From: Thermoflexales bacterium
Lineage (GTDB): Bacteria; Chloroflexota; Anaerolineae; Fen-1058
Assembly: GCA_017882055.1 (NCBI GenBank)
Contig: JADGQE010000002.1
Coordinates: 1-35,850 of the forward strand
Direction: 5' to 3'
DNA length: 35,850 nucleotides
Numbering within the stretch: position 1 is the first letter of the stretch; every line of letters starts with the position of its first letter. This document shows, one piece after another, positions 8,100 through 35,202 of the stretch. The notes under the pieces are model-generated. The model was given only the letters and a program-made list of their open reading frames with translations. It searched no databases and was not told the origin of the DNA. The position numbers were made by a program, and so were the translations under genes.

Positions 8100-8420
8100 A
8101 TGGACGAGAAACTAAAAACGATTCTAACTGAATTGCACCGTCGCTTCGAAGAACTCTACGGCGAACGATTGGTCAATTTGGTGCTCTTTGGTTCTCAGGC
8201 GCGCGGTGACGCCGCGCCGGGATCGGACATTGACGTGCTGGTTGTATTGCGTGGCACGGTAGACACTTACCAGGAGATTACGCAGACCAGCCGGATCGTA
8301 TCCGATTTGTCGCTGCGGTTTGATGAAGTGGTGAGTTGCGTCTTTATGGATCAAGATCGCTTTGCACATCGTCACGGGCCGCTATTAAGGAACGTCCGGC
8401 GAGAGGGGATTGCAGTATGA
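8100..8420 (+). CDS. MNT-type nucleotidyltransferase (antitoxin of HEPN/MNT modules)
   Basis: Minimal nucleotidyltransferase signature LFGSQARGDAAPGSDIDVLVV, about 105 aa. Its stop overlaps an ATG (ATGA at 8417..8420), as is typical for MNT-HEPN pairs. Confidence 0.8.
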   Translation: MDEKLKTILTELHRRFEELYGERLVNLVLFGSQARGDAAPGSDIDVLVVLRGTVDTYQEITQTSRIVSDLSLRFDEVVSCVFMDQDRFAHRHGPLLRNVRREGIAV

Positions 8421-8508
8421 CAGAGGATCGACCGAACAAATTTCTCGCGCCGCGCAGTTCTTAGAAGTCGCCGAGCGGCTGATCGGCCCGATCCAGCCTT
8501 CGGCGTAA
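8417..8508 (+). pseudogene. HEPN toxin remnant (frameshifted, truncated after about 30 codons)
   Basis: The coupled ATG 8417 reads MTEDRPNKFLAPRSS then stops. The +1 frame reads STEQISRAAQFLEVAERLIGPIQPSA then stops at 8508, which resembles a HEPN helix-1. A full HEPN domain would need about 120 aa. Repeat copy A begins 36 nt later. Confidence 0.4.
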
Positions 8509-8543
8509 TGAATCCGAGTATTTGTCTACCGCGTTTCCTGGAA

Positions 8544-8675
8544 TGTCATTCTGAGCGGAGCGACGCCTGGCGGCCCACCGGCGCGATGCGCCGGGCATGG
8601 GCAGAATCTCTGCGCCGGTTATCATCAAGTGCCGGTCGTGGCAGAGATTCTTCGCAAAAAACGCTCAGAATGACA
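8544..8675. mobile_element. MITE-like nested-inverted-repeat element, copy A (132 bp)
   Basis: Perfect 14-bp terminal inverted repeats (TGTCATTCTGAGCG ... CGCTCAGAATGACA). Inner inverted repeat AGAATCTCTG / CAGAGATTCT. Internal hairpin CCGGCGC-gat-GCGCCGG. The first 70 nt or so closely match copy B at 35228. Confidence 0.7.
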
Positions 8676-8729
8676 CTTCGGTAAACAATTACGAATCCGA
8701 AAACCATCTTTGCCAGAGTGATAACGCTT

Positions 8730-10982
<2,253 letters not shown>

Positions 10983-11000
10983 TCGTCATGCAAGCGAAGT

Positions 11001-11029
11001 GCCCGGTGATGAGCCGGGCCTTTTCTTTT
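11001..11029 (+). terminator. rho-independent terminator
   Basis: GCCCGG-tgatgag-CCGGGC followed by CTTTTCTTTT, 19 nt after the stop at 10982. Confidence 0.8.
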
Positions 11030-11051
11030 GATCGGGTTGGCAGGCACTCGT

Positions 11052-11079
11052 TTTACAAATGTCGGCTTGAATGTATAAT
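11052..11079 (+). promoter_or_regulatory. sigma70-type promoter of the histidine kinase gene
   Basis: TTTACA (11052..11057), 16-nt spacer, TATAAT (11074..11079), about 38 nt upstream of ATG 11117. Confidence 0.55.
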
Positions 11080-11116
11080 CCAGCGACAACATCGATCGAT
11101 TGGACAGGTGGGTCAG

Positions 11117-12289
11117 ATGCAAGACGAACGCAAAACCAAACAACAACTGATCGCTGAATTGAATCAACTGCGCAGTAACGTTCGCCGTCAAGCCGAGCAG
11201 ATGGAGCAACGCGCGGCTGAACTGGAAAGCGAGCGCCAGCGAACGCAGGCGATCCTTGACTCCGCCGGCGAGGGCATCTTGTTGCTGAATACCGAGCAGG
11301 AAATTCAATACCTCAACCCGGCGGTCGAACGGCTCACGGGCCATACGGCGGTCGAAATGTTGGGGCACGAGCTGCGCATCTGGATCAGCGGCCTTACCCC
11401 GCACAGCGTGATGAGTGATCTGGATGATCATATACGCCGGGGCGAAGTGTGGCAGGGTGAAGTGATTAATCGGCGCAAGGATGGCTCTTTGTACGATGTC
11501 GCGCTGACCATCAACCCGCTCAAAGATTCCGAAGGTCGCGTGGCGGCTTACGTCGCCATTCAGCATGACATTACTCATCTCAAAGAACTCGATCGCCTCA
11601 AAGATCAATTTGTGACGCGGATCGGGCATGAACTGCGGACACCGGTCGCCAATGTGAAGCTGTATCTTGGATTGTTGGAGCGTGGCAAGCCGGAGAAGCG
11701 CGAGCAATACTTGCAAACGCTCCGCAACGAAACTGAGCGCTTGCAGAAACTGGTAAACGGCTTCCTTGAGATTTCCGAATGGGATACCAGCACTGAACCG
11801 GTTCATCTGATGGCTGTGAGTCTGAACCCGCTCCTGGCTGATCTGTGGGCCGATCGGGCGGCACTGGCCGCCGAGCGCGGCCTCAGCCTGGATACGAATA
11901 TCGATCTGGCCTTGCCTCCGGCGCTTGCCAATCAAGCGATGGTGTTCCACATTGCATCGAACCTGATTGCGAACGCGTTAGACTATACCCCGCGCGGTGG
12001 ACGACTCACGCTGAGTACGGCGGTTCGATCGAAGCAGGATCGGAACTGGGTCACATTCTGCGTACAAGACAGCGGGCCTGGCATTGCGCCCGATGAGGTG
12101 CCGCGCCTCTTTGAGCGTTTCTATCGCGGCAAAGCCGCCGATAGTTTTGCGATTCCGGGCGCGGGACTTGGTCTGGCGATCAGCAAGGTGATTGTCGGAA
12201 AGCTCGGCGGTTTTATCACGGTGGAAAGCCCGCCGGCAATCGAAGGAGAGGGTGCGGCTTTCATCGTCTGGCTGAAGATGGCGCCGTAA
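11117..12289 (+). CDS. PAS-domain sensor histidine kinase
   Basis: Coiled coil, then PAS (ILLLNTEQEIQYLNPAVERLTGH), HisKA H-box (RIGHELRTPV) and HATPase_c (NLIANALDYT, DSGPGI, GAGLGLAI). The track start 10889 lies inside the previous gene. ATG 11117 follows the terminator and promoter and has AGGTGG 5 nt upstream. No response regulator is adjacent. Confidence 0.85.
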   Translation: MQDERKTKQQLIAELNQLRSNVRRQAEQMEQRAAELESERQRTQAILDSAGEGILLLNTEQEIQYLNPAVERLTGHTAVEMLGHELRIWISGLTPHSVMSDLDDHIRRGEVWQGEVINRRKDGSLYDVALTINPLKDSEGRVAAYVAIQHDITHLKELDRLKDQFVTRIGHELRTPVANVKLYLGLLERGKPEKREQYLQTLRNETERLQKLVNGFLEISEWDTSTEPVHLMAVSLNPLLADLWADRAALAAERGLSLDTNIDLALPPALANQAMVFHIASNLIANALDYTPRGGRLTLSTAVRSKQDRNWVTFCVQDSGPGIAPDEVPRLFERFYRGKAADSFAIPGAGLGLAISKVIVGKLGGFITVESPPAIEGEGAAFIVWLKMAP

Positions 12290-12402
12290 ATGTGGGTGCG
12301 GGCACGGGCGGGCAGCTGTTGGCCTGGCTGTTGCTGCGCTTGACGGCCTCGGCTGGCCGCAAACGTGAAGCGTAAACGGGTACACACGTGCAAACGCTAT
12401 GC

Positions 12403-12432
12403 TTGACATCGGGCGAAGCGTGGGTGTACTAT
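12403..12432 (+). promoter_or_regulatory. sigma70-type promoter of moeA
   Basis: TTGACA (12403..12408), 18-nt spacer, TACTAT (12427..12432). Confidence 0.5.
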
Positions 12433-12476
12433 AGTCGCAACAAAACTGCGAAGCGGATTTGATCGAGTCAGTCCCT

Positions 12477-13721
12477 ATGCTATCAGTGCAGGAAGCTCAA
12501 CAGGCAATCTTATCCGGTATTCAGCGGCTGGAACCGGAAACCATTGATCTTGCAGAGGCACTGGGGCGGGTGCTGGCTGAAGAGGTCGTGTCTGATACCG
12601 ATCTGCCTTCGTTTGATAACTCGTCGATGGATGGCTACGCCGTTCGGGCCGAAGACGTGCGCGAGGCGTCGCCCGATCGACCGGTGCGTTTGCCGGTGTG
12701 TGCCGATATTCCCGCCGGTCATCCGATTGATCTGTTGTTGCCGGTCGGTGCAGCCGCGCGCATCACGACCGGTGCGATGCTGCCGGCCGGCGCGGATGCC
12801 GTGGTGCCGGTCGAGGACACCGACGACGGCGCGCGTGGTGCAAGCCCATTGCCGGCTGCGGTGGCGATCCATCGATCGCTGAAACGCGGCGCTTTCGTGC
12901 GGTACGTGGGCGACGATGTGAGACGCGGCGAGAAAGTATTGATCTCAGGCGCGATCGTTCGTCCGGCCGAGATCGCGTTGATGGCGGCGGTTGGACATAG
13001 TCGCGTTCAAGTGATTCGGCGTCCACGCGTGGCGTTGTTTGCCACGGGCGATGAATTGGTCGCACCTGATCAGCTGCCGGCGCCGGGTCAAATTCGCAAT
13101 GTCAACGAGCAGGCGACTGCCGCGCTCGTCGAGCGATATGGCGGCGTGCCAATCCGGTTGGGTATCGCGCGCGATCGATTGGACGCCGTGACCGAAAAAC
13201 TGGTGGAGGCGATCGAGCAGCGGGCTGATCTCATCGTCACTTCGGCCGGCGTTTCAGTCGGCGCTTACGATCTGGTCAAAGAGGCAGTGGCGGCGCACGG
13301 CTCGATCGATCTGTGGCGGGTTCGTATGCGGCCGGGCAAGCCGTTAGCTTTCGGCCAGTATCGTGGCGTGCCTTTCTTTGGATTGCCCGGCAACCCTGTT
13401 TCGGCGATGCTGACGTTTGAGCAATTTGTGCGGCCGGTACTGCGCGTGCTGGGCGGTTTCACCCGCTGGCACAAGCCGACCGTCGGCGTGATTTTGTTGG
13501 AGCCGATCGAGAGTGATGGACGCGAGACTTATGCACGTGCCCGGGTTGAGCGCGACGGCGATCATTGGACGGCGCGGCTGACCGGCGGGCAAGGCTCGAA
13601 CATGTTGAGCAGTCTGGCGCGTGCGAATGCGTTGGTGATCGTGCCGGATGGCGTCTGGCAATTGCCCGCGGGCTCAGCGGCGCAGGCGCAGATGCTGGAC
13701 TGGCCGGATGAAATCGGCTGA
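12477..13721 (+). CDS. moeA: molybdopterin molybdotransferase
   Basis: MoeA/gephyrin-E signatures: ALGRVLAEEV, FDNSSMDGYAV, GAMLPAGADAVV, TGDEL, SAGVSVG, RPGKP, GLPGNPVSA. ATG 12477 gives the usual N-terminus; the track start is TTG 12459. Confidence 0.9.
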   Translation: MLSVQEAQQAILSGIQRLEPETIDLAEALGRVLAEEVVSDTDLPSFDNSSMDGYAVRAEDVREASPDRPVRLPVCADIPAGHPIDLLLPVGAAARITTGAMLPAGADAVVPVEDTDDGARGASPLPAAVAIHRSLKRGAFVRYVGDDVRRGEKVLISGAIVRPAEIALMAAVGHSRVQVIRRPRVALFATGDELVAPDQLPAPGQIRNVNEQATAALVERYGGVPIRLGIARDRLDAVTEKLVEAIEQRADLIVTSAGVSVGAYDLVKEAVAAHGSIDLWRVRMRPGKPLAFGQYRGVPFFGLPGNPVSAMLTFEQFVRPVLRVLGGFTRWHKPTVGVILLEPIESDGRETYARARVERDGDHWTARLTGGQGSNMLSSLARANALVIVPDGVWQLPAGSAAQAQMLDWPDEIG

Positions 13722-13730
13722 GGCTTGACC

Positions 13731-13758
13731 TTGCGTGTTGCATAGTTCCTGATATAAT
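13731..13758 (+). promoter_or_regulatory. candidate promoter of the acidic-protein gene
   Basis: TTGCGT (13731..13736), 16-nt spacer, TATAAT (13753..13758). A better -35 (TTGACC, 13725..13730) is 22 nt away, which is too far. Confidence 0.4.
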
Positions 13759-13805
13759 CGCGTCGAATTATCCGAACTTGTCGGATGGATGGTAGGAGGT
13801 GGTTG

Positions 13806-14117
13806 ATGCCGCGCATTCGCTGTAACTATGAAGGTTGCATTCACTTGGAAGGCGGACTTTGTACGGCCGATGATATCGATCTTGATCAAGAATTAGGCTG
13901 CCTGACGTTTTCTCAGGTAGAGGAAGAAGAGATTGCCGTCGTCGACGGTCTCGAAGACGAGTGGGCGGAGGATGAGGTTGCCACTGCCGAAGATGAAGAT
14001 GAAGACGAAGAGGAAGATTGGGAGGACCTCGACGAGGAAGAGGACGATGATGACGATGATGAAGACGAAGACGATGATAGTTTTCGTCCCGCACCCCGCA
14101 GCCGTCGAAAGGCGTGA
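13806..14117 (+). CDS. DUF1540-like Cys-motif domain fused to a polyacidic tail
   Basis: ATG 13806 with GGAGG at 13794..13798. N-terminus RCNYEGCIHLEGGLCTADDIDLD..GCLTF resembles the DUF1540 pattern C-x4-C-x7-C-x-A-x2-I...C-x-T-F (from memory). A 52-aa stretch then has 39 Asp/Glu, followed by a short basic end (RSRRKA). Confidence 0.65.
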   Translation: MPRIRCNYEGCIHLEGGLCTADDIDLDQELGCLTFSQVEEEEIAVVDGLEDEWAEDEVATAEDEDEDEEEDWEDLDEEEDDDDDDEDEDDDSFRPAPRSRRKA

Positions 14118-14151
14118 TCTCTCTTTGTGGTGAAGGTTTCTCTGGAACGAA

Positions 14152-14183
14152 CAGCGGGTTCTATCGTTAGATAGAACCCGCTG
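14152..14183. terminator. bidirectional hairpin terminator between convergent genes
   Basis: CAGCGGGTTCTATC-gtta-GATAGAACCCGCTG (14-bp perfect stem), followed by ATGTTTTGT on the + strand. It sits between the stops at 14117 (+) and 14209 (-). Confidence 0.75.
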
Positions 14184-14208
14184 ATGTTTTGTGAGTGGCT
14201 AACATGCG

Positions 14209-15165
14209 CTAATTTTGCTGCCGATGCTGTTCAATCGTCCGGCGGAAGATATCTTCGTGTTCGGTGGAGGTGTTTATGCGGGCTTTGCCGGTCTTGCTCG
14301 CGGCGGGCGTTTCCGCGACATTCTGCTGAGCGGCTTGAAAGGCGACTTGCATCGGCGTCAGCACGGGTACCTCTTCTTCTTGTTCCAGCTCGGCCATCGC
14401 TTCGGCCATATCGAACTTCATCGTCAACTTGATTTGATGCTTGCGCGCATTCACTTCGAGGACGCGGACCTCGACTTCCTCGCCGACCTTAACCACGTCT
14501 GAAGCCTGGGCGACGTATCCGCCCGGCCCCATCTCGCTGATGTGTACCATGCCTTCGCGCTCGGCCCCGATGTCGACGAATGCGCCGAAGTGTTCGACCC
14601 GTGTGACTTTGCCGGGATAGGTCTGGCCGTGCTTGATGTCATTCCAATCGAGCGCCGCCGGTTCGAGCATGCTCAAGCCGATGCGATTTTCTTTGCGCGA
14701 GGCTTTAACCACCCAGACCGTGATCTCATCGCCTTCTTTGACCAGATCGGATGGTTTGTTGACCCGGGTCTTGGCCATCGAGCTAACGGGGACCAGTCCG
14801 TCTTTGGGCGCGCCGACATTGACAAACACGCCGAAGTCTTCGACCTTGACGATCTTGCCCGTCAACTTCAGGCCGCGCTGCAGATCATTCCAGTCGAGCG
14901 GCGGCGGCTCGATGCGGGTTAGTGCGATCAAGCCTTCAGCGGGCTTAACCTGCTTGACCCAGACGGTGACCGTTTCGCCTTCCTTCAGGACATCTGCAAC
15001 GCGGGTCGCCATATGGCCGGGCTGCAGTTCTGAGATGTGCAAAAATGCTTCGCGTTCGGCGCCGATATCAAAGCGTGCGCCGGCCAATTCGACCCTGGTC
15101 ACCTTGCCTTCGAACTTCATCTTGGGTTTGATGCTGCTGAGTGGAATGCGATCTGATTCGGACAC
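14209..15165 (-). CDS. S1 RNA-binding domain protein (three S1 domains), ribosomal protein S1-like
   Basis: Three S1 repeats (GKVTRVELAGARFDIG, GKIVKVEDFGVFVNVG, GKVTRVEHFGAFVDIG). GTG 15165 preferred because AGGAAGG lies 6 nt upstream. The track start 15240 lies inside a leader hairpin. Confidence 0.8.
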   Translation of the reverse strand: MSESDRIPLSSIKPKMKFEGKVTRVELAGARFDIGAEREAFLHISELQPGHMATRVADVLKEGETVTVWVKQVKPAEGLIALTRIEPPPLDWNDLQRGLKLTGKIVKVEDFGVFVNVGAPKDGLVPVSSMAKTRVNKPSDLVKEGDEITVWVVKASRKENRIGLSMLEPAALDWNDIKHGQTYPGKVTRVEHFGAFVDIGAEREGMVHISEMGPGGYVAQASDVVKVGEEVEVRVLEVNARKHQIKLTMKFDMAEAMAELEQEEEVPVLTPMQVAFQAAQQNVAETPAASKTGKARINTSTEHEDIFRRTIEQHRQQN

Positions 15166-15257
15166 TATTAACCTTCCTGCTCGACGTGGATAGATATACA
15201 TGGCAACGCCCCGTTTGAGCGGGGCGCTGGAAATTTCCATAGGCTATTTCCAGTTGC
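15166..15257 (-). promoter_or_regulatory. structured 5' leader of the S1-like gene
   Basis: Two hairpins on the minus strand: CTGGAAAT...ATTTCCAG (15227..15253, 8-bp stem) and CGCCCCG-n6-CGGGGCG (15207..15226). They lie between the consensus promoter and the SD. Confidence 0.5.
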
Positions 15258-15263
15258 GGGCCG

Positions 15264-15292
15264 ATTATACCGCTCTGGTGTCAGACTGTCAA
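15264..15292 (-). promoter_or_regulatory. consensus sigma70 promoter of the S1-like gene
   Basis: Minus strand: TTGACA (15287..15292), 17-nt spacer, TATAAT (15264..15269). Confidence 0.75.
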
Positions 15293-15312
15293 ACAAACCG
15301 CAGCATTCCGGG

Positions 15313-15507
15313 CTAATACCAGGGGCCTGTCTGCAGATCGCTTAGAAACTGTTCACGATCTTCGCGATCCTGGATGCTGTGCCCGGCTTCATACGCCAGG
15401 CGGCGATACTTTGCAGACTCGGTGGTGTTGCCGGCGCATGCCAGCGCACGAGCGACACTTTCATAAGCATAAGCAATATCGGCTCTTCCGGCTTCGGCGG
15501 GAAACAC
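15313..15507 (-). CDS. small hypothetical protein, possibly a C-terminal gene fragment
   Basis: The 64-codon ORF (GTG start) has protein-like helical sequence (ADIAYAYESVARALACAGNTTESAKYRRLAYEAG..DREDREQFLSDL). It has no SD, and its frame opens only at the arm of the palindromic element at 15513. No family recognised. Confidence 0.3.
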   Translation of the reverse strand: MFPAEAGRADIAYAYESVARALACAGNTTESAKYRRLAYEAGHSIQDREDREQFLSDLQTGPWY

Positions 15508-15512
15508 GCCAT

Positions 15513-15593
15513 CCTTGCGAGGGGTTTAGGGACGATGGGAGCACTGCACCGCAGGTGTTGACTATCCTCGCGGTCACCCCTCGCAAGGTTTTT
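15513..15593. repeat. palindromic element (13-bp arms, 50-nt loop) with T-run
   Basis: CCTTGCGAGGGGT (15513..15525) pairs with ACCCCTCGCAAGG (15576..15588), followed by TTTTT. It shares the 11-mer CTCGCAAGGTT with the dinB-proximal terminator at 32666..32676. Confidence 0.6.
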
Positions 15594-15650
15594 CCCGCTC
15601 AACTCGGAAGAGCCGCAATATCAAAATCTGCAAGGCCATTTGTCTCGCCG

Positions 15651-15674
15651 TCTGCTACCTGATAGGGTAGCAGA
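15651..15674 (-). terminator. hairpin downstream of recA (weak terminator candidate)
   Basis: TCTGCTACC-n6-GGTAGCAGA (9-bp stem) begins 10 nt after the recA stop. No U-tract. Confidence 0.35.
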
Positions 15675-15683
15675 GACTTCACT

Positions 15684-16892
15684 TCATGCTTCGTAACCCT
15701 CGGCCTCTTCGACTATCGCTTCGGCAATGGCGATCGCACCTTCCGGCGCGTCCTCATCTTCTTTGTCTTCCGCGGCGGGAGGCAGGCTGGCCTTCGCCAA
15801 CTCAGCAGCCTTCTCGACATTGCTGCGGATGGTGGCCTCGATCTCATTAGCGATCTCGGGATGGGCTTTGAGGAAGTCTTTGGCATTCTCGCGGCCCTGA
15901 CCAAATTTCACATCGCCATACGCGAAGAAAGCGCCGCGCTTGGTGATGATGTCCATGTTGGTGCCGATGTCCAGAACATCGCCGACTTTGCTGATGCCTT
16001 CGTTGAACATGATGTCGAACTCGGCTTCGCGGAAGGGTGGGGCGACTTTGTTTTTGGTCACGCGCACTTTGACGCGGTTGCCGACGACTTCGGCGTCGGT
16101 CTTGATGCTCTGAGTGCGGCGAATGTCCAACCGCACCGAGGCGTAAAACTTGAGTGCGTTACCGCCGGTGGTGGTTTCGGGATTGCCAAACATTACGCCG
16201 ATCTTCATACGGAGCTGGTTGGTGAAGACGAGGGCGGTGTTTGATTGCTTGATCGCGCCCGAAAGTTTTCGCAGCGCCTGCGACATCAGACGGGCCTGTA
16301 AGCCCATGTGACTGTCGCCCATCTCGCCTTCGATCTCAGCGCGTGGCACGAGCGCGGCGACGGAATCGATAATGATCAGATCGACTGCGCCCGATCGGAC
16401 CAGCTGTTCCGCAATTTCGAGTGCTTGCTCGCCGGTATCCGGTTGCGAGATGTACAGGTTATCGACATCGACCCCGCACAGGGCGGCGTAACCCGGATCA
16501 AGCGCATGTTCCATGTCGATGTAAGCGGTGATGCCGCCGCGCTTCTGCGTTTCGGCCACGAGGTGTTGACAGAGCGTGGTCTTGCCGGCCGATTCCGGCC
16601 CATAGATTTCCGTGACGCGGCCGCGCGGGATGCCGCCAACGCCCAGGGCCAGATCGAGTGCCAGTGAACCGGTCGGGATAGTTTCAACTTTCATATGAGT
16701 CGCTTCGCCCAGCCGCATGATCGATCCTTCGCCGAAACGCTTGAGGATGGTACCCAGCGCTTGATCGAGTGCGCGGGCCTTGCCCGGATCGATTTGAGGC
16801 TCGGCTTTCTTGGTCTTTTTTGTCTTGGCTCCTTCGATAAATTCCGTCAGTTCTTCAGGTGAGTCTGCTTCCACTTTCTTTTTGCGTGCCAT
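15684..16892 (-). CDS. recA: recombinase RecA with Lys-rich N-terminal extension and acidic tail
   Basis: [22 protein letters not shown], Walker [63 protein letters not shown] 6 nt upstream of ATG 16892, overlapping the upstream stop codon. About 36 extra N-terminal residues ([32 protein letters not shown]). Confidence 0.95.
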
Positions 16893-16902
16893 GTTGTATC
16901 TC

Positions 16903-17256
16903 CTATAGTGTTGATCGAATTGATTGCAGCACGTTGCGTGCTTCAGGAACGAAGTTTAAGAAACCGGCCAACTTTTGGCAGGTATCGAACTCACGGCAAT
17001 GCGCGCAATTGGGAATTTGATGCACGCTGCCGCAAGCCCGGATCTCGCATTCGGCGCAGTGGCCGCCCTGTCGTCCGCCGAAAGCCACACAGCCGTCACA
17101 AGTAACGTAAGCGGCTGTTAATCCCGGCGCGTTATAGAGTTGCTGCCATTTGATGGCTACGCGTTCCCTGGCGGCTTCATCGTTTGCCTGGGTAGCGAGG
17201 TAAGCCTCACACTGGGAACAATTCAATCCGCATACCGCGATCAGTTGGTCCATCAT
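16903..17256 (-). CDS. DUF3795-like Cys-rich protein
   Basis: [41 protein letters not shown] pattern. The stop is 10 nt from the recA ATG, so the two are probably co-transcribed and translationally coupled. Confidence 0.75.
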
Positions 17257-17284
17257 GACCTCTTGTAACTTTGAGGATTATACA

Positions 17285-17313
17285 AGAATAGCACAAGCGT
17301 TCTACTCTGTCAA
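17285..17313 (-). promoter_or_regulatory. promoter of the DUF3795-recA operon
   Basis: Minus strand: TTGACA (17308..17313), 17-nt spacer, TATTCT (17285..17290). A second -10-like TATAAT lies at 17277..17282. Confidence 0.6.
17289..17304. promoter_or_regulatory. candidate LexA/SOS operator (TAGAAC-N4-GTGCTA)
   Basis: Minus-strand TAGAACGCTTGTGCTA fills the promoter spacer and overlaps the -10. It is 14/16 identical to the box at 33158..33173 in the dinB-operon promoter, in the same register. Confidence 0.5.
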
Positions 17314-17400
17314 TCGAACAAAACCTTAAAATCTGGCGCAGGATTTGGGGGCGGCGGCGGGGCAAGGGCGTGGATTGCATTTTCAGACTAGCACAGGTTG

Positions 17401-17883
17401 CTAGATCGAATAGGCTTTCCACTGCGACGTCGAACTGGGCGGAATGTCAATTTCCGTTAGCCCGGTCGATTCACTGCTCAGCATTCGCAAACCGATCTTG
17501 CGTGATAAGGGGAACACCGGTTCCAATGCTGCGATCTGTTCTGCGTCGAAAAACTCAGCCGCGCTGATTTCGTATTCGTCGGCGTGTGGCTCACCCGATG
17601 AGACTTCAGCCCGAAAGATGACGAGTACCGCGCCGCCCTTTTCGCCGTAGCGTGTCCGCACGCCGACGATGCCCCTGACGGCGATCTCAAGCCCCGTCTC
17701 TTCAAGCAGTTCGCGCTGCACCGCTTTGTCGAGTGTTTCAGCGTGATTGACATAGCCGCCGGGCAAAGTCCACGTGCCTTTGTGAGGTTCGTAGTTGCGC
17801 TGAACGTATAACACTTTGCCGTCGCGCACGACGGCGCCCGTTACACCGATATCCCAGCGTTTGCCTGCGTCTTGATCTCTCAT
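17401..17883 (-). CDS. NUDIX hydrolase
   Basis: Nudix box GGYVNHAETLDKAVQRELLEETGL. ATG 17883 preferred; the track start 17931 would overlap the upstream gene by 35 nt. Confidence 0.85.
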   Translation of the reverse strand: MRDQDAGKRWDIGVTGAVVRDGKVLYVQRNYEPHKGTWTLPGGYVNHAETLDKAVQRELLEETGLEIAVRGIVGVRTRYGEKGGAVLVIFRAEVSSGEPHADEYEISAAEFFDAEQIAALEPVFPLSRKIGLRMLSSESTGLTEIDIPPSSTSQWKAYSI

Positions 17884-17896
17884 GCGGCCTGCTTGC

Positions 17897-18199
17897 TCAC
17901 TGCGGTTCTTCTTTCGCAAATAGCCTGGCAAAGCCGGGATAAGCGACCAAAGGAATCACATCAAATGTAATCAGTCCCTGTTCGACGAGGGGCAGGGTGC
18001 TCAATACGGTTTTGGCCTCTTCCATGCTTGCGCATTCGAGGATGAGTACGGCGCTAGGCCGATCGGCGCGGAAGTATAGTTCTCGCAGAACGCCGGCCTG
18101 ATACAGTTTCCACGCTCGGGCTGATTCCGCTTTCAGATGTGGCTTAAAGTCCTCGGCTGTGAAGCCGGCAACGTCTTGCTCAAGCGCTAAGATTTTCAT
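17897..18199 (-). CDS. small dimeric alpha/beta-barrel protein, muconolactone-isomerase-like
   Basis: 100 aa. The pattern AWKLYQAGVLRELYFRAD..AVLILECASMEEAKTVLSTLPLV..FDVIPL resembles MIase-like family members (recollection, not a search). Confidence 0.55.
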   Translation of the reverse strand: MKILALEQDVAGFTAEDFKPHLKAESARAWKLYQAGVLRELYFRADRPSAVLILECASMEEAKTVLSTLPLVEQGLITFDVIPLVAYPGFARLFAKEEPQ

Positions 18200-18208
18200 C
18201 GATGTGTC

Positions 18209-19180
18209 TCACCACGCATAGGCTTCGGGTGCTTCACCGCCGGGACCGGGGAAGATGGCATCGAGTTGCTTCAATTCGTCGCGGCTGAATTTGATCTTTA
18301 AGGCACGCAGACTGCCATTGAGTTGCTCCAGCGTGCGCGGGCCGATGATGGGCGCAGTCACGACGGGATTGCGCAACAACCAGGCCAGCGCTACATCGGC
18401 CGGCTTCTCACTCCACTTGCGGCACAACGCTTCATAGGCCTTCAACCTGGGCAGGTGCAGCTCGATTTTTTTCTGCATATCCTTGTCTGCGCGGCGGCCC
18501 GCGCTGATCTTTTGCAGCACGCCGCCGAGCAGACCACCCGCCAGTGGACTCCACGGAATCAGGCCCAGGCCATAGGCCCGACAGGCTGGAACGACCTCCA
18601 ATTCAATCGTGCGATCTTTTAGATTGTAGAGGCTTTGCTCGGAGACCAGGCCGAGGAAGCAGCGCGCCCTGGCTGTTTCTTGTGCTTGCGCCAGATGCCA
18701 GCCGGCGAAGTTGCTGCTGCCCACGTACAGCACTTTGCCTTGCTGGACCAGCACTTCCATGGCCTGCCAGACTTCGTCCCATGGCGTCTCGCGATCGATG
18801 TGGTGCATCTGATACAGATCGATGTGATCAGTCTTGAGGCGGCGCAGGCTTTCTTCACAAGCATGACGAATGTGATAAGCCGACAGTCGATGCTCGTTAG
18901 GCCCTTCGCCCATCCGGCCAAAGACTTTGGTGGCCAGCACGATCTTCTCGCGCCGGCCGCCGCCCAGTTGAAGCCAGCGGCCGACGATTTGCTCTGTGAC
19001 GCCTTCACCCATTTTCCAGCCGTAGACGTTGGCCGTATCGAAAAAATTGATGCCGAGTTCCAGTGCGCGATCCATGATCGCGTATGAATCTTCTTCGCTG
19101 GTGAGCGGGCCGAAGTTCATCGTGCCGAGGCATAAGCGGCTGACTTTCAGGCCGGTGCGACCGAGTGAAATGTGTTCCAT
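18209..19180 (-). CDS. aldo/keto reductase
   Basis: LGRTGLKVSRLCLGTMNFG, FFDTANVYG, DLYQMHH, YVGSSNF, SEQSLYNL: the typical AKR signature set. AAGGAG SD upstream of ATG 19180. Confidence 0.9.
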   Translation of the reverse strand: MEHISLGRTGLKVSRLCLGTMNFGPLTSEEDSYAIMDRALELGINFFDTANVYGWKMGEGVTEQIVGRWLQLGGGRREKIVLATKVFGRMGEGPNEHRLSAYHIRHACEESLRRLKTDHIDLYQMHHIDRETPWDEVWQAMEVLVQQGKVLYVGSSNFAGWHLAQAQETARARCFLGLVSEQSLYNLKDRTIELEVVPACRAYGLGLIPWSPLAGGLLGGVLQKISAGRRADKDMQKKIELHLPRLKAYEALCRKWSEKPADVALAWLLRNPVVTAPIIGPRTLEQLNGSLRALKIKFSRDELKQLDAIFPGPGGEAPEAYAW

Positions 19181-29233: not shown

Positions 29234-31324
29234 TTAGCCGGGCGTCTCGCGCAGCACTTGTTGAATCAGCGTGAGCAGCGGCCCGCGTTCCTCGAAACCC
29301 TGCTCGTTGAGGGTGCTGATGGCGAGATAAATCTTCGTCCGGCAGCGGCGAATCAGACCTCGCATCAAGCGTAATAACGTTTCACGCCGGGCTGCCTGCT
29401 CGTCTTCGTCGGCCCATTTCTTGTCGGCCGGCCAATTGCGACTGAGCACATACGGATGCGTCAGCGGTTGATACAACCGTTCCCACCAGGCCGGGCTGCC
29501 CGCATTCAACCAGAATTGGTAACTCACGGATTCGTTGCTAAGCAAAAACGTATAAGCCGGCGCGAGCAGTACGGCATTCGGCGCTTCGGCGTACGGGCTT
29601 TCGACAAACGTCGCCGCGACGATACCTTCTGCCACCATGCGCACGTAGTCGCGACCGACATTGGGATCATTGGTCGCGGCATACGGGTCGGGGTTGATCG
29701 TCTGCCGGAACTTCCGCGCCGACTGGATGATTTGCGCCGTAATGCGTCCCGGATCGATTTTGGCGTGGAAGCCATAGCCGGGCTGCGATAGCAGCTCGCC
29801 GAAAAGTTTGGCGAGAAAATGATCGAGTGGGATCGGCGCATCCGCATGCCGCTGATCGCTTAGCCACTGCCGCAGCCGATCGTACTTTGCGCCGACTTCA
29901 TAGCCGATCCGATCTTGCAGTTCGGGTCGCAGGCTGTCGAATGTACGCAGTTCAGTTTGCCCGTCCCGCGATCGATATAGCCGCTCTGCAATCAGGTGTG
30001 CCCGCGCCGGATCGAGCCGGTCGATCGACCGTGCCAGCATCTGGGCGACATCGGCTTGCGGCGGCATCATTTTCCAATCAGGGTGTGCCAGCGCCGACAG
30101 CGTCATCAAGCCGCGCGTGATCGCTTCTTCATTTAATGCGCGCGACGGTCGCAGCGATCGCGTTGCGATGTTGTGCCGTGTCAATCGATCGTCCAGCGCA
30201 AATCGCAGCGCATCGCCCAGAAACGGCGCGAGGATGACGATTTCGCGCGGCGCGATCTGTTGCTCGTTGACGAGTTTGGCGACTTCACTCATGACCCAGT
30301 CCAGCATTTGTGGATGGAAGCGACCGCCGCCAAAAGCTAGCGCATTACTCGTGTTACCATGCGCCGTTCGCATAGGCAGATCGCTATCGTCGGCCAATGA
30401 ACGAACGATCGCTGCTTCAAGTGCGTGCACGTTGTCCGACATCACGTGCGATTCCGTCAGTTCGATATGTTGATCGCAGACCGCTCGAAGCGCGTAAGCC
30501 GATTGGGGATCTGCTCCCAAAAACGATCGGTAGCCCGCCTCGCGGTCGTAAACGATCAACGCCGAGTCAGTCTGCGGAATCCAATCGCGCAGCAGATCGT
30601 GCGTAATCGGCGTGTCCTCTTCGACGTTATCGATGACGAGATGGCGATAGCGTTTGAATAAGCGATCGCGGAACCAGTCACGTCGAAGCAGCTGCGTAAA
30701 GACTTCGATTTGCAAAGAGAAGTCGAGCAAGTTGTTGGCCAGGCAGTAATCGCGAAAGCGATTGATGCAGTCCTGAACTTGCGCAAAAGTGATCGTCTGC
30801 GCCGACGGACCTTCCCAGGCGGCGATCAACCGTTTGCCGACTTCGGTATGCGGAAAGCCGACGAGCGCGGCTTTGTTGAGGTTATCGAGCAATTGGCTGA
30901 AGAGGCGTTGGCCGGGCACGCGCACGCCATCGAAGTACAGCTTCTCGGCGACGAAAGGCTCGACCACTTTCTGCATGTAATATTGCGCGGTTTCGAGCGT
31001 GAGGAAAGTTGGCGGCTGATCGGCGCGCAGCGTGGTGAAGCCGGAATCATCGGCGATGGCCGGCCACATCAGATCGACCGACCGGCGTGCCAGTCCGCCC
31101 ATTGTTAATGCCTCGACTTGTTCACCTGCGGGTAAATCTGCCTGGCGCAAGAGCTGTTGATAGGGTTTCAGCAGACTTCTTTGTGGCGCGAGGACGAGGA
31201 TGCTCTTGCCATCGATGCGCGCTGCCAGCAGGGCGCGCAAACGCGCGACAGCCCATGTCGTTTTGCCTGAGCCTGCCGGGCCAGAAAGGAAAAGACGATT
31301 GAGGAGTTCGTTTGCGACGAGCAT
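29234..31324 (-). CDS. AddB/UvrD-like SF1 P-loop protein, no nuclease domain recognisable
   Basis: Walker A GPAGSGKT followed by ILVLAPQRSL (AddB-like). Motif II position reads HLVIDNVEEDTP, with D-N instead of D-E. The C-terminal RRCRTKIYLAIS resembles motif VI. No Cys cluster or PD-(D/E)XK motif seen. ATG 31324 preferred over track start 31396. Confidence 0.7.
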   Translation of the reverse strand: MLVANELLNRLFLSGPAGSGKTTWAVARLRALLAARIDGKSILVLAPQRSLLKPYQQLLRQADLPAGEQVEALTMGGLARRSVDLMWPAIADDSGFTTLRADQPPTFLTLETAQYYMQKVVEPFVAEKLYFDGVRVPGQRLFSQLLDNLNKAALVGFPHTEVGKRLIAAWEGPSAQTITFAQVQDCINRFRDYCLANNLLDFSLQIEVFTQLLRRDWFRDRLFKRYRHLVIDNVEEDTPITHDLLRDWIPQTDSALIVYDREAGYRSFLGADPQSAYALRAVCDQHIELTESHVMSDNVHALEAAIVRSLADDSDLPMRTAHGNTSNALAFGGGRFHPQMLDWVMSEVAKLVNEQQIAPREIVILAPFLGDALRFALDDRLTRHNIATRSLRPSRALNEEAITRGLMTLSALAHPDWKMMPPQADVAQMLARSIDRLDPARAHLIAERLYRSRDGQTELRTFDSLRPELQDRIGYEVGAKYDRLRQWLSDQRHADAPIPLDHFLAKLFGELLSQPGYGFHAKIDPGRITAQIIQSARKFRQTINPDPYAATNDPNVGRDYVRMVAEGIVAATFVESPYAEAPNAVLLAPAYTFLLSNESVSYQFWLNAGSPAWWERLYQPLTHPYVLSRNWPADKKWADEDEQAARRETLLRLMRGLIRRCRTKIYLAISTLNEQGFEERGPLLTLIQQVLRETPG

Positions 31325-31331
31325 AAGAGCG

Positions 31332-31340
31332 ATTATAGCA
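31332..31340 (-). promoter_or_regulatory. extended -10 element positioned for a leaderless transcript
   Basis: Minus strand TGcTATAAT, with exactly 7 nt (CGCTCTT) between TATAAT and ATG 31324. No SD. The -35 is weak (TCAACG at 18 nt). Confidence 0.45.
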
Positions 31341-31461
31341 CGCGTGTGTGATAGCCGTTGATTTCGCTTGCCTTCGCGTAGGCAATGCGCTATCAAACAT
31401 GTTCGTCTTGCGAGTTTTCTTTGAGAAATAAGAGGCTATGCGAACAGGAGCGGGCAGGGCG

Positions 31462-32631
31462 TCACTTCTTTTTCCTCGGTCGAATCAGCGATCCGCGTTG
31501 CAGTGATTGTGTGCCAAAGCGATGCCGGATTTGATCGACCGTCCTGGTGAGTTGATCAATCCGTTCGCTTCTCGGCTCAAAGAGACTGAGCTGTCTGGCA
31601 GCCAGACCCAAACCACGTGCCGCCACACCAATCAATCGAATGGGGCGGCGATTCCAATTGGCCTCGAAGAGCGACCACGCGGTTTCGAAGATGGGCTGAT
31701 CGAGATCGATCGGTTGGGGCAGGGTGGTCTGCCGTGTAAAAGTCGTGAAGTCGCCGTAGCGAATTTTGATCGCGATGGTGCGCGCGCTCAACTGATCTTC
31801 GCGCAAGCGAGCACCGACGTGCTCGCTGAGTTCGAGCAACACACTCCGTAAACTGGACACGTCTGCCACATCGCGCGTAAAGGTTGTTTCCTGGCTGACC
31901 TGTTTGATCGATTGCGCCGATTCGACGGGGGATTCATCTTCGCCGCTGGCGCGTCGAATGAGATCGGCCGCGCCGCGTTGGCCGAAGTGCCGAACCAACG
32001 TATCCGATCGCGTTTGAATGATTTGCCCGATCGTCTCAACACCCATCGACTTCAATATCTCAGCCGTTTTAGGCCCGACGCCCCACAAGGCTCGAACCGG
32101 CAGCGGTGCGAGAAAGGCGGCCTCTTGACCAAATGGCACGCGACAAATGCCATTCGGCTTCGCTTGCTCGGTGGCGATTTTGGCGACGAGCTTATTGCTG
32201 GCAATACCGATCGAGCAGGGGAGACCCAATTCATTGCGGATACGGTCGTGCAGCCAGTGCGCGAGTTTGTCGGCCGAACCGTAACGCAGTTCGGTACCGG
32301 TCACATCGAGGAATGCCTCGTCGATCGAGAATTGCTCGATTTGGGGCGTTATCTCGGATAACATCGATATGACTTCGCGCGAATGTTGTGAGTAAATATC
32401 ATGGCGACCGGGCAGGAGAATCAAAGCGGGGCACAACTGCAAAGCCGTTCGGGTCGGCATGGCCGAGCGGACACCGAACTTGCGCGCCTCGTAGGAAGCG
32501 CTGGCGATGACGCCACGCTGATCGGCGCGTCCGCCCACTGCGACCGGCTTGCCACGCAGATCGGGTCTGTCGAGCAGTTCGACCGAAACAAAGAACGCAT
32601 CGAGATCGATGTGCAGGATCGTGCGTGTCAT
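31462..32631 (-). CDS. dinB: DNA polymerase IV (Y-family)
   Basis: ILHIDLDAFFVSVE, SYEARKFGVRSAMP, SIDEAFLDVT, SIGIASNKLVAKIA and WGVGPKT: the canonical DinB motif set. Confidence 0.95.
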   Translation of the reverse strand: MTRTILHIDLDAFFVSVELLDRPDLRGKPVAVGGRADQRGVIASASYEARKFGVRSAMPTRTALQLCPALILLPGRHDIYSQHSREVISMLSEITPQIEQFSIDEAFLDVTGTELRYGSADKLAHWLHDRIRNELGLPCSIGIASNKLVAKIATEQAKPNGICRVPFGQEAAFLAPLPVRALWGVGPKTAEILKSMGVETIGQIIQTRSDTLVRHFGQRGAADLIRRASGEDESPVESAQSIKQVSQETTFTRDVADVSSLRSVLLELSEHVGARLREDQLSARTIAIKIRYGDFTTFTRQTTLPQPIDLDQPIFETAWSLFEANWNRRPIRLIGVAARGLGLAARQLSLFEPRSERIDQLTRTVDQIRHRFGTQSLQRGSLIRPRKKK

Positions 32632-32637
32632 GGCGAC

Positions 32638-32675
32638 AAAAAACCTTGCAAGAGTTTCCGAACTCTCGCAAGGTT
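32638..32675 (-). terminator. intrinsic terminator between the 143-aa gene and dinB
   Basis: Minus strand AACCTTGCGAGAGTT-cgga-AACTCTTGCAAGGTT (15-bp stem, one mismatch) followed by TTTTTTG. It starts 4 nt after the upstream stop, and its U-tract ends 6 nt before the dinB ATG. Confidence 0.75.
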
Positions 32676-32679
32676 GGAT

Positions 32680-33111
32680 TCAGCGTTTGCCGTTAGGCGA
32701 AGCGAGTAGTTTCTTATACGCGCCTTGCCATAGGGTAGGGGACTTCGTAAAGGTTGAGATGCGGATGTCGGAGAAGCGCGCTGCCAGGCCGGCGAGTTCG
32801 ATCGGCGCGGTGGCCCAATCGTCGCTGCGCAGGATCTGTTCGAGCCGCTTCGATGTATCGGGTAACCATAACCACTCGCGCCGAAGTTGATCGGCTTTGA
32901 CGTAGTAATCGCGCTTTTCCCACGCGCTGGCCGATTGATCGATCGATGTATCCATGCTGCGTAAGCCCACCACGATGAAGGCCAGCATGTCTTTGGCTTC
33001 GGCGTCGATCGATTTCTTTTCGCTGAGATGGCGTAGGATTTCGGCGATGGCGCGGCGAATGGCGTTGCGCTGTTGTGTGGGTGTTCCGTCGATGTGAGTG
33101 ATACGGCTCAT
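32680..33111 (-). CDS. hypothetical 143-aa protein, first gene of the dinB locus
   Basis: Clean ORF with helical, protein-like composition, directly downstream of the SOS-box promoter. No family or motif recognised. Confidence 0.6.
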   Translation of the reverse strand: MSRITHIDGTPTQQRNAIRRAIAEILRHLSEKKSIDAEAKDMLAFIVVGLRSMDTSIDQSASAWEKRDYYVKADQLRREWLWLPDTSKRLEQILRSDDWATAPIELAGLAARFSDIRISTFTKSPTLWQGAYKKLLASPNGKR

Positions 33112-33153
33112 AGTGATTTTGATCTCTGATTTGCGATTTCGGATTTGACGCCG

Positions 33154-33182
33154 ATGTTAGCACAAAAGTTCTAATTCGGCAA
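33154..33182 (-). promoter_or_regulatory. promoter of the 143-aa gene / dinB locus
   Basis: Minus strand TTGCCG (33177..33182), 17-nt spacer, TAACAT (33154..33159). Confidence 0.55.
33158..33173. promoter_or_regulatory. candidate LexA/SOS operator (TAGAAC-N4-GTGCTA)
   Basis: Minus-strand TAGAACTTTTGTGCTA. It starts 3 nt after the -35 and overlaps the first two nt of the -10, exactly as in the recA-operon promoter. Confidence 0.5.
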
Positions 33183-33575
33183 GCTCGAGAAATGAAGTTA
33201 CTCCAAACGTCGTAGGCCCACGTGCTTTCGCGGTCGGTGCCCGACGATGGCGCGTATTATCCACGATTTGGGCGAATTCGCAAGGCTTGCCGCCGCACCT
33301 TGATAAAAGAGGCTCGTTGAGCCGTTTGCCATAGCCATAGGTGGCTGCCTGGAGTGTTGTATGGTCAAATGGATTGCCATGGATTATCTGGGAAATCTCA
33401 CCTTAATTGCGACGGGCATGGGCAGACGCGAAGAACATTTTTCAAGGAGCGATCAACTAACAAAAAACTTGGTGCCTTGGTGGCGAGATAAAGGTCAACT
33501 GCCTGAACGTTTACCGTTTTGGAAGGAAGTTGTGTGCTCAATGAGCCGATTTTCTACATCAAAGTGAATTCACCC

Positions 33576-33604
33576 TTGACAGCGCCCGAAAATAGTATTA
33601 AACT
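33576..33604 (+). promoter_or_regulatory. promoter of the HNH-integrase pair
   Basis: TTGACA (33576..33581), 17-nt spacer, TAAACT (33599..33604). AGGAG lies 10 nt before ATG 33643. Confidence 0.55.
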
Positions 33605-33642
33605 CAACATACACTTAGTCATGTAACAGGAGTTTTGAACAC

Positions 33643-34137
33643 ATGAAGAAGATCTTGTTGTCCGCCAGTGGCAAGGGTCGGCCCTCAAATCGCACGGAAC
33701 CTGTCTACGCTCTGGTTGATGATGAGGACTACGAGTGGTTGTCACAATGGAACTGGACGGCCATCCTGACCCATCGAAAGAGCGGCGGTTATGCTACACG
33801 CAATGAATATGGTCAATCTATTCTCATGCACCGCTTAATTATGGATGCTAAAGAGGACGAAGAAGTCGATCACAAGAACAACACTGGCCTCGATAATCAA
33901 CGGGAAAATCTACGTATCGCCACGACTAAGCAAAACCGGGCAAATAAATCAAAATACGGCAACAACACATCAGGCTTCAAGGGTGTCAGTCGCAGTGGTA
34001 ATAAATGGCAAATGCACCTCAAGGCGATTTACGATACTCCAGAAGAAGCGGCTCAAGCCTATGACGCCTGCGCCAGGATCCTATTTGGTAAATTTGCCAA
34101 TCTCAACTACCCTGAGACTGAACCTCGCCGAGGATGA
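33643..34137 (+). CDS. HNH endonuclease with C-terminal AP2-like DNA-binding domain
   Basis: HNH_3-type motif VDHKNNTGLDNQRENLRIATTKQN. AP2-like FKGVSRSGNKWQMHLKAIYDTPEEAAQAYDACARILFGKFANLNYP. The coding sequence is visibly AT-richer than the flanking genes. Confidence 0.85.
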   Translation: MKKILLSASGKGRPSNRTEPVYALVDDEDYEWLSQWNWTAILTHRKSGGYATRNEYGQSILMHRLIMDAKEDEEVDHKNNTGLDNQRENLRIATTKQNRANKSKYGNNTSGFKGVSRSGNKWQMHLKAIYDTPEEAAQAYDACARILFGKFANLNYPETEPRRG

Positions 34138-34140
34138 AAA

Positions 34141-35202
34141 GTGGCTAACACGCTTAAGTCGAAATCGTCCCAATCAATGCCACTGGCGTCAGCGCCGACG
34201 TTCACCGTCGCCGACCTTGAATATGGCGAACAATTCATCGCCACCATCGCATCGAGTCCGAAAACCGCCGACGCTTATCGCTATGGACTGGGGCAGCTAG
34301 CCGAGTTCTTTGCTGCAACTAAATACCTGCCAGGCAACAAGCCCCCTGCCCCCAAATATGCTATCGCGCGATTGAACGACACAGTGCTATTGAAGTTTTA
34401 CGAATGGCTAACCAAACAAAAGTATGCCCAGACAACTTGTGATAACTATCTGGCGGCTGTAAAGCGCTTCCTGATCTGGCTCGACGCCAACGATCGATTG
34501 CCGAGTGGCTTTCAGGTGGGCAAAGCCGTCAATCGCTTGAAGGCGGCGCGCGGGACCCGCCGGGTCGCAAAGGCCGGACGCGAACCTGATCCGGGCGTGC
34601 CCAACATGGTGACGTACTACGATGCCATCCCCCTGCCCGCGCTGGACGAAAAACGCGGCAAGATCAAGCGCCTGGAGATTCTGCGTGCGCGTGCGATCGT
34701 GCATACGTTGTATGCCTCTGCCGGCCGCGTGAGCGAAGTTGCGTCTCTTACTCGCGAGATGGTACTTGATGGCCGCAAGAGCGAGATCCGCATCACGGGT
34801 AAAGGCAACAAGGATCGCATCATGTTGCTGACGGCCGACGCTCAGCGTGCCATCGCTGCCTACTGCCGCGAGCGCGACGACGATTATCCTGGTCTGTTTG
34901 TTTCGCATGGCCGCGATGTCGGTAAAACGCTGGGACGTGGGACGCTGTGGTCGGTGGTGAAAAAAGCGGCCAAAGCGCTGGGATTGTTCAAGGGCACATC
35001 GCCACATGCCTTTCGACATTTTCGCGCACAGCAACTGTTGCACGAAGGCATGGATTTAGACGTGCTACAAGCCTACCTCGGCCACGCTGACATCAGCACG
35101 ACGCGTCGCATCTACGCGCCGTACACCGCTGTGGAGAAAGTGCGCGATCAGTTGGAGACGTTTGGACGCAGTGCGCGAGATGCGGCAAATGACGCGCGAT
35201 GA
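34141..35202 (+). CDS. tyrosine recombinase / phage-type integrase
   Basis: N-terminal SAM-like core-binding domain (FYEWLTKQKYAQTTCDNYLAAVKRFLIWL). Catalytic residues R (AGRVSEV), HxxR (HAFRHFRA) and H..Y (LGHADISTTRRIYAPY). The GTG start is 3 nt after the HNH stop. Confidence 0.9.
   Translation: MANTLKSKSSQSMPLASAPTFTVADLEYGEQFIATIASSPKTADAYRYGLGQLAEFFAATKYLPGNKPPAPKYAIARLNDTVLLKFYEWLTKQKYAQTTCDNYLAAVKRFLIWLDANDRLPSGFQVGKAVNRLKAARGTRRVAKAGREPDPGVPNMVTYYDAIPLPALDEKRGKIKRLEILRARAIVHTLYASAGRVSEVASLTREMVLDGRKSEIRITGKGNKDRIMLLTADAQRAIAAYCRERDDDYPGLFVSHGRDVGKTLGRGTLWSVVKKAAKALGLFKGTSPHAFRHFRAQQLLHEGMDLDVLQAYLGHADISTTRRIYAPYTAVEKVRDQLETFGRSARDAANDAR

Follow-up and report, generated by a model that had tools for sequence, protein, structure and literature searches.

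In the 35.85-kb stretch of DNA analyzed here (hereafter, the window), two promoters, one in front of a gene unit containing recA and the other in front of a unit containing dinB, carry almost the same 16-nt imperfect inverted repeat in the same position, where it overlaps the extended -10 element. We consider it likely that these 16-mers are Cheo-type LexA operators fused to the promoter, which would block RNA polymerase until the DNA is damaged. A preliminary description of the window had named them as a candidate LexA (SOS) operator, and this proposal gains support from the placement of the box within the recA and dinB promoters and from its retention at an unchanged register in some 30 otherwise diverged promoters of related Chloroflexota. 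From the sequence we infer which protein binds there, that it represses the promoters and that damage induces them.

Two promoters of the window share a 16-nt box

All genes of the two units are encoded on the minus strand. The first unit begins with a gene for a Cys-rich DUF3795 protein of 117 aa (16903..17256; Pfam PF12675, E 7e-15), which is followed by recA, encoding a 402-aa protein (15684..16892; PF00154, E 4e-135; TIGR02012, 541 bits). Because recA starts 10 nt after the DUF3795 gene, co-transcription of the two genes is probable. The second unit begins with a gene for a 143-aa protein, designated p143 (32680..33111), which is helical by prediction and has no Pfam, NCBIfam or PDB-fold match. 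Downstream of p143 are dinB, encoding a DNA polymerase IV of 389 aa (31462..32631; PF00817/PF11799, and NCBIfam NF002677 above the cut-off), and a gene for a UvrD-like superfamily-1 helicase of approximately 690-720 aa (29234..31396; weak PF00580 match), the true start of which may lie about 30 codons inside the ORF. Both copies of the 16-mer had been said to precede SOS genes. The genes are as stated, except that neither unit starts with recA or dinB: the DUF3795 gene stands ahead of recA and p143 ahead of dinB, so that both come second.

The nearest relatives of the RecA protein are those of Anaerolineales, Anaerolineae and Chloroflexota metagenome-assembled genomes (MAGs; 68-74% identity), which places the organism in Chloroflexota/Anaerolineae. 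In exact-protein searches, the genes at the window ends had no match, and RecA led only to a JGI metagenome contig of 10.5 kb, 99.6% identical to window positions 8147-18674; the DUF3795-recA order was also found in JGI contig L081. In the window and in L081, recA is separated from the SOS-type promoter by the DUF3795 gene; in the related genomes, recA directly follows the promoter. As it sits behind an SOS-type promoter, the DUF3795 gene would be damage-induced in this organism. The window contained no tRNAs and no Rfam matches.

On the minus strand, the recA-side promoter (17313..17285) reads TTGACAgagTAGAACGCTTGTGCTATTCT and the dinB-side promoter (33182..33154) reads TTGCCGaatTAGAACTTTTGTGCTAACAT; they can be laid out as TTGACA-gag-TAGAACGCTTGTGCTA-TTCT and TTGCCG-aat-TAGAACTTTTGTGCTA-ACAT, respectively. 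In the recA-side promoter, the -35 element TTGACA (17308..17313), the TTG of which is kept in 30 related promoters, is followed by the candidate operator TAGAAC-GCTT-GTGCTA (17289..17304; GAAC at 17299-17302 and GTGC at 17291-17294), which lies at approximately -26 to -11. The right half-site of this operator overlaps an extended -10 element (17285..17295) that is composed of T-GTG-C (TRTGn) and TATTCT (17285-17290) and fits the consensus TGTGCTAtnaT. In the dinB-side promoter, the -35 element TTGCCG (33177..33182) begins with TTGCC, the majority form in related p143 promoters, and is followed by the candidate operator TAGAAC-TTTT-GTGCTA (33158..33173; GAAC at 33168-33171 and GTGC at 33160-33163) and by an extended -10 element (33154..33164) composed of T-GTG-C and TAACAT (33154-33159), which agrees with the 30-promoter consensus given below. 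When both sites were re-read, the 16-mers proved to be identical at 14 of 16 positions, to start 3 nt past the -35 element and to end in the TA that opens the -10 element, exactly as previously reported.

The recA-side promoter was found independently by a promoter scanner as TTGACA-17-TATTCT with TG before the -10 element (17313..17285). The dinB-side promoter, TTGCCG-17-TAACAT with TG, has 8/12 matches and falls just under the 9/12 cut-off of the scanner. Both show the features of an extended -10 promoter of the sigma-70 type, namely, TTGNNN, a spacer of 16-17 nt and TG one base before TAnnnT, and in both the box lies between the -35 and -10 elements of a promoter that serves core SOS genes (DUF3795-recA and p143-dinB-helicase). 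A perfect TATAAT sequence at 17277-17282 was considered as an alternative -10 element for recA and rejected, as it would have either a 25-nt spacer from TTGACA or a poor -35 element (GTAGAA), and relatives retain the -10 element that overlaps the box instead. Farther upstream, at a distance of approximately 95 nt from the SOS promoter, the sequence TAGCAACCTGTGCTAGTCT (17385-17403, minus strand), which begins at the stop codon of the NUDIX gene, contains a TGTGC-TAnnnT-like element; it lacks GAAC, its -35 element is poor, and it is probably not functional.

The full motif had been found only twice in 35.8 kb. Consistent with this, an exact search of the 35.85-kb window gave no third copy of TAGAAC-N4-GTGCTA, and the core GAAC-N4-GTGC occurred in the same two places only. 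The window was also scanned with a weight matrix trained on six recA-promoter sites, all of which came from other genomes, the window sites being kept out. The dinB-side site ranked first (21.3 bits) and the recA-side site second (15.1 bits), whereas the third-ranked score was 9.6 bits. In 200 shuffles of the window, the mean best matrix score was 11.3, and the second-best score never exceeded 15.1. The third-ranked match (31391-31406), being under the mean shuffle maximum, was rejected as a third site. Two perfect GAAC-N4-GTTC sequences, at 17512 and 21761, were likewise rejected as operators, since both are within ORFs and without promoter context.

The box is kept at recA and p143 promoters of related loci

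Of seven recA loci of the Anaerolineae type, six (L001-L004, L006 and L045) carry the box in the register seen in the window, and the seventh, L005, lacks it. The six promoters have the design TTGACN-N4/5-GAAC-N4-GTGC-TAnnnT, located 70-190 nt before the recA match, and their surroundings are unrelated. A scan of metagenomes with p143 yielded 80 loci. The p143 promoter sample, for which enough upstream DNA was required, comprised 23 loci (20 with at least 60% identity, together with L223, with 56%, L282 and L283), and the design TTGNNN-N3-TAGAAC-N4-GTGCTAnnnT was present in 20 of the 23, at 42-85 nt before the start codon. By the criterion of phylogenetic footprinting, the box is thus conserved upstream of orthologous genes, for recA (6/7) as for p143 (20/23). 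The same promoter design was observed in three p143 loci of only about 47% identity (L251, L272 and L277). The 30 unique recA and p143 promoters, taken together, yield the consensus TTGcc-N4-tAGAAC-nttT-GTGCTA-tnaT, with flanks that carry approximately 0 bits of information. The promoter-embedded box was confined to recA and p143 promoters in the Chloroflexota loci examined (about 580 kb), except for one extra copy in L244, which precedes the p143 gene by about 600 nt; in the DNA sampled, the motif stands in front of two kinds of operon only.

In five distant p143 homologues (L257, L265 and L271/279/281), a perfect GAAC-N4-GTTC sequence is located directly downstream of a -10 element, which indicates that the recognized unit is a Cheo-type inverted repeat and not a quirk of the promoter. 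Among the related loci, perfect GAAC-N4-GTTC was observed only in these distant p143 loci and in L274. In the latter, the perfect palindrome TGAACAAATGTTCA (9496-9509) is intergenic, has AACAAATGT repeats on its flanks, and follows a phosphofructokinase-like gene and precedes a short Arg-rich ORF (MAEIIQRRRRRRRRRHK...). In the region upstream of a Chloroflexales recA (L021, approximately 2585-2615), the promoter TTGCAA-16-TGgTACAAT is followed by A-AGCACAGATGTTCA, in which AGCACAGATGTTCA is a 13-mer of the Anaerolineae recA boxes, inverted, placed after the -10 element and located about 360 nt before recA.

The box is not universal in the class, because a lineage represented by L224-L245 and L227 has p143 and recA promoters without it. 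The p143 genes of L224-L245 (55-59% identity) have a different, near-invariant promoter, GCTTGACGGTTCGGCGCAAAGCTGGTATCTT, located about 30-100 nt upstream and without GAAC-N4-GTKC, and the region upstream of recA in L227 (16480-16570) lacks the box. The different conserved spacer at p143 in this boxless lineage suggests regulatory turnover within the class; alternatively, this spacer may be bound by a second regulator.

The 5' leaders of the p143 genes, in the window (33112-33153) and in L202-L219, are A/C-rich and contain AATCC or AAATC(N) units at intervals of about 7 nt; a clear Shine-Dalgarno sequence is missing from them. In 14 of the 30 promoters, including the recA promoter of the window, AATCC lies no more than 35 nt past the -10 element.

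Comparison with known LexA boxes

In Firmicutes and Actinobacteria, the LexA motif is GAAC-N4-GTTC, or CGAACRNRYGTTYC (PMC3323433; PMC2248561). The 16-mers had been placed one base off this motif, and accordingly 7 of the 8 core bases match at both window sites, as they do at all 30 related sites, with a T before the right half. The window sites share with the Cheo box of Bacillus subtilis LexA/DinR the GAAC half-site, the 4-nt spacer and the T/Y before the right half. They are also alike in their location at the promoters of recA and of a Y-family polymerase, where they overlap elements bound by RNA polymerase. They differ from the Cheo box in their flanks (TA...TA instead of C...G), in the right half, which is GTGC in all 30 promoter-embedded copies and never the canonical GTTC, and in their fusion to the extended -10 element in a fixed register. 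A single core mismatch is frequent among functional LexA boxes (for example, table in PMC3091678). The Escherichia coli SOS box, CTG-N10-CAG (PMC3091678), follows the same logic, that of a LexA dimer site over the recA and dinB promoters, but is unrelated in sequence and half-site spacing.

The cyanobacterial LexA box, RGTACNNNDGTWCB, is asymmetric and experimentally characterized, for example, in Nostoc lexA (AGTACTAATGTTCT; PMC3091678). Although it belongs to another phylum, it is, like the window sites, a pseudo-palindrome of equal length with unlike halves (GTAC vs GTTC), and the window sites read on the opposite strand as AGCAC-N4-GTTCT, one base from the cyanobacterial AGTAC-N4-GTTCT. 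The opposite strands of the two sites, AGCACAAGCGTTCT and AGCACAAAAGTTCT, do not match RGTACNNNDGTWCB, because the third base is C for T in both, and the recA-side site additionally breaks the pattern with C at the D position.

Within the phylum, the LexA of Dehalococcoides ethenogenes is, to our knowledge, the only Chloroflexota LexA that has been studied. It is said, in a report by Fernandez de Henestrosa et al. in J Bacteriol in 2002, to bind GAAC-N4-GTTC, so that its box has both the phylum and the motif family in common with the window sites. This LexA reportedly did not bind its own recA promoter. No box was found upstream of recA in the Dehalococcoidia loci L020 and L073; in contrast, the Anaerolineae-type genomes do have the box at recA.

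Repression by LexA is the best explanation of the box, given that the motif is one base from the boxes of Firmicutes/Actinobacteria and of cyanobacteria and that a LexA of this kind is reported for Dehalococcoides. Most probably, the window sites are a further example of the well-known Cheo-type LexA switch. In the mechanism that we propose, the box would occupy the spacer and the extended -10 element of a sigma-70-type promoter, its left half, (T)AGAAC, lying in the spacer. The box would be bound by a dimer of a repressor, most probably LexA, covering approximately -26 to -11, and the bound dimer would exclude sigma from the extended -10 element and the spacer and keep RNA polymerase off by promoter occlusion. 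Upon DNA damage, the repressor would cleave itself, stimulated by RecA, and so release the promoters for transcription of DUF3795-recA and p143-dinB-helicase.

We searched for the repressor gene by tblastn using E. coli and B. subtilis LexA sequences, the latter being 93% identical to the lexA of B. amyloliquefaciens. Neither the window nor any of the Chloroflexota loci fetched yielded a lexA gene, and no Chloroflexota replicon was present among the 60 matches listed of 189 in PLSDB. Forty-five full-length LexA-like loci from IMG/VR, which are without taxonomy, had almost no Cheo-like box upstream.

This search result would also be compatible with the box being the operator of a damage-responsive repressor other than LexA, for example an XRE-HTH protein with an S24 domain (HdiR-like or prophage-CI-like) or another lineage-specific factor for GAAC-N4-GTGC, a reading that we regard as rather unlikely. 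The invariance of GTGC, which extends to copies outside the extended -10 element (L021, L250 and L255), hints at an altered specificity, and in three viral contigs an XRE-S24 gene is divergent from a TTGACA-N4-AGAAC-N4-GTGC-TATAAT promoter. However, the viral pattern was imposed by the search, and the scan of viral contigs with the promoter/operator pattern returned at least 120 matches, approximately the number expected by chance. Moreover, a single base separates the motif from the LexA motif established for neighboring phyla, perfect GAAC-N4-GTTC replaces the box upstream of p143 homologues, and the targets, recA and dinB, belong to the classical LexA core. It is possible, if doubtful, that the invariant GAAC/GTGC asymmetry reflects a lineage-specific repressor, be it a LexA variant or another S24-type protein, with a small Anaerolineae damage regulon of which p143 would be the most constant member.

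The three viral repressor genes (IMG/VR; L109, 10955-11788; L186, 603-1413; L201, 740-1514) encode XRE HTH proteins with an S24 domain of 204-213 aa. They are divergent from TTGACA-N4-(A/T)GAAC-N4-GTGC-TAT(A/T)AT, a design imposed by the search pattern; the adjacency of this promoter to an S24 repressor gene, which the search did not impose, was observed for 3 among the 120 viral matches listed.

The right half-site coincides with the extended -10 element

The right half of the box, T-GTG-C-TA, coincides with the TRTGn extended -10 element (the "-16 region") and the first two bases of the -10 element. Gram-positive promoters of this "-16 region" or extended -10 type, TRTGnTATAAT, were reportedly described by Voskuil and Chambliss in 1998, and T-G-T-G-C-TAnnnT fits TRTGn plus the -10 element. 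In the loci that we examined, TGTGnTAnnnT without GAAC had 49 unique occurrences, including the L227 recA promoter and recurrent elements of the TGTGGTATAAT type, which are used by non-SOS promoters. The boxes differ from such promoters in that n is fixed as C and GAAC stands exactly 4 nt upstream, which creates an inverted repeat: n was C in 27/27 sequences with GAAC four bases upstream, in contrast to G24/C9/T8/A8 in those without GAAC.

Since GTGC overlaps the generic TRTGn element, half of the apparent palindrome could be promoter-driven. The extended -10 element as a full explanation of GTGC is weakened by L021, L250 and L255, which have GTGC outside that position. The argument that promoter function alone requires no conservation of the spacer therefore applies to (T)AGAAC and the invariant C, and fails for the right half, which is itself a TRTGn element. 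From these patterns, the palindrome-breaking G (GTGC vs GTTC) would appear to serve the polymerase, and the invariant C and (T)AGAAC would be what a repressor needs.

It is accordingly improbable that there is no repressor at all and that the -35 element, the spacer element and the TRTGn extended -10 element merely set promoter strength. The generality of T-GTG-n-TAnnnT in these loci and the conservation of the -35 and -10 elements themselves would suit such an arrangement, but invariance of (T)AGAAC and of the C behind TGTG is limited to the recA and p143 promoters, and the other TRTG promoters have no GAAC and mostly G at n. Furthermore, the same 12-mer is located downstream of the -10 element in L257, L265 and L271 and is inverted in L021, where no role in the spacer or the -16 region is possible.

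That p143 itself binds the box and autoregulates its own operon together with recA is very improbable. In most loci p143 comes first behind the box, and its product is highly conserved, Arg/Lys-rich and of unassigned function; however, the protein is predicted to be a helical bundle with no recognizable DNA-binding fold or family, and the L224-L245 lineage has p143 with no box at either p143 or recA. A chance resemblance of two unrelated promoters is effectively refuted, because, although the 8-base core by itself has a calculated expectation of about 1 match per window, the 12 specified bases have one of about 0.004 on two strands of 35.85 kb, the -35/-10 register is identical, the box is kept in 30 unique promoters and both sites lead the ranking of an independent matrix.

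The p143 family

Homologues of p143 numbered more than 186, all of about 143 aa and all annotated as "hypothetical", some of them labelled Anaerolineae or Chloroflexi; at 50% identity, the family has 323 representatives. The set examined (homologues P0001-P0270; loci L202-L283) forms a stand-alone family. The helical bundle was predicted with a pLDDT of 76. Where p143 identity is at least 60%, dinB comes next and then, if the contig continues, the helicase gene; the p143-dinB-helicase order is kept in L204, L207, L209, L215 and L246. L202 (3512-4441) is 92% identical in DNA sequence across p143 to the window (31046-33176); dinB is precisely absent from it, and the helicase gene comes directly after p143. 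In view of L202, dinB looks like an insertion or deletion within a p143-helicase unit.

Being first behind an SOS-type box and travelling with DinB and a UvrD-like helicase, p143 is a candidate for a new protein of the damage response; on the doubtful reading of a lineage-specific repressor given above, it could act as a new accessory factor of translesion synthesis or fork processing. If the proposed regulation is correct, p143 would represent a candidate new SOS gene family that is co-transcribed with Pol IV and a helicase. The presence of this family under the box is the more novel by-product of the analysis.

In the searchable literature we found no description of SOS regulation for Anaerolineae, a class of Chloroflexota that is abundant and rarely cultured. 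As the operator is of a known kind and the class is one for which no SOS description was found, the consensus and the composite design are useful and not surprising. If the LexA reading is true, the consensus would provide an operator for regulon prediction in thousands of MAGs, and a single 16-mer would act both as a repressor site and as an extended -10 element, with a G for the polymerase and the next base, C, for the repressor. The general picture of the SOS response would be unchanged.

Divergent from p143-dinB, the window contains a gene for a Xer-like tyrosine recombinase (33643-35202, plus strand), which is below the NCBIfam cut-offs for XerC/D and integron integrase and is preceded by an HNH endonuclease gene. 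Counterparts of the recombinase gene were found in the relatives L282 (8401-9465) and L283 (8453-9505), with 62-83% p143 identity. The GC content of the window falls to 0.53 in positions 32001-34000.
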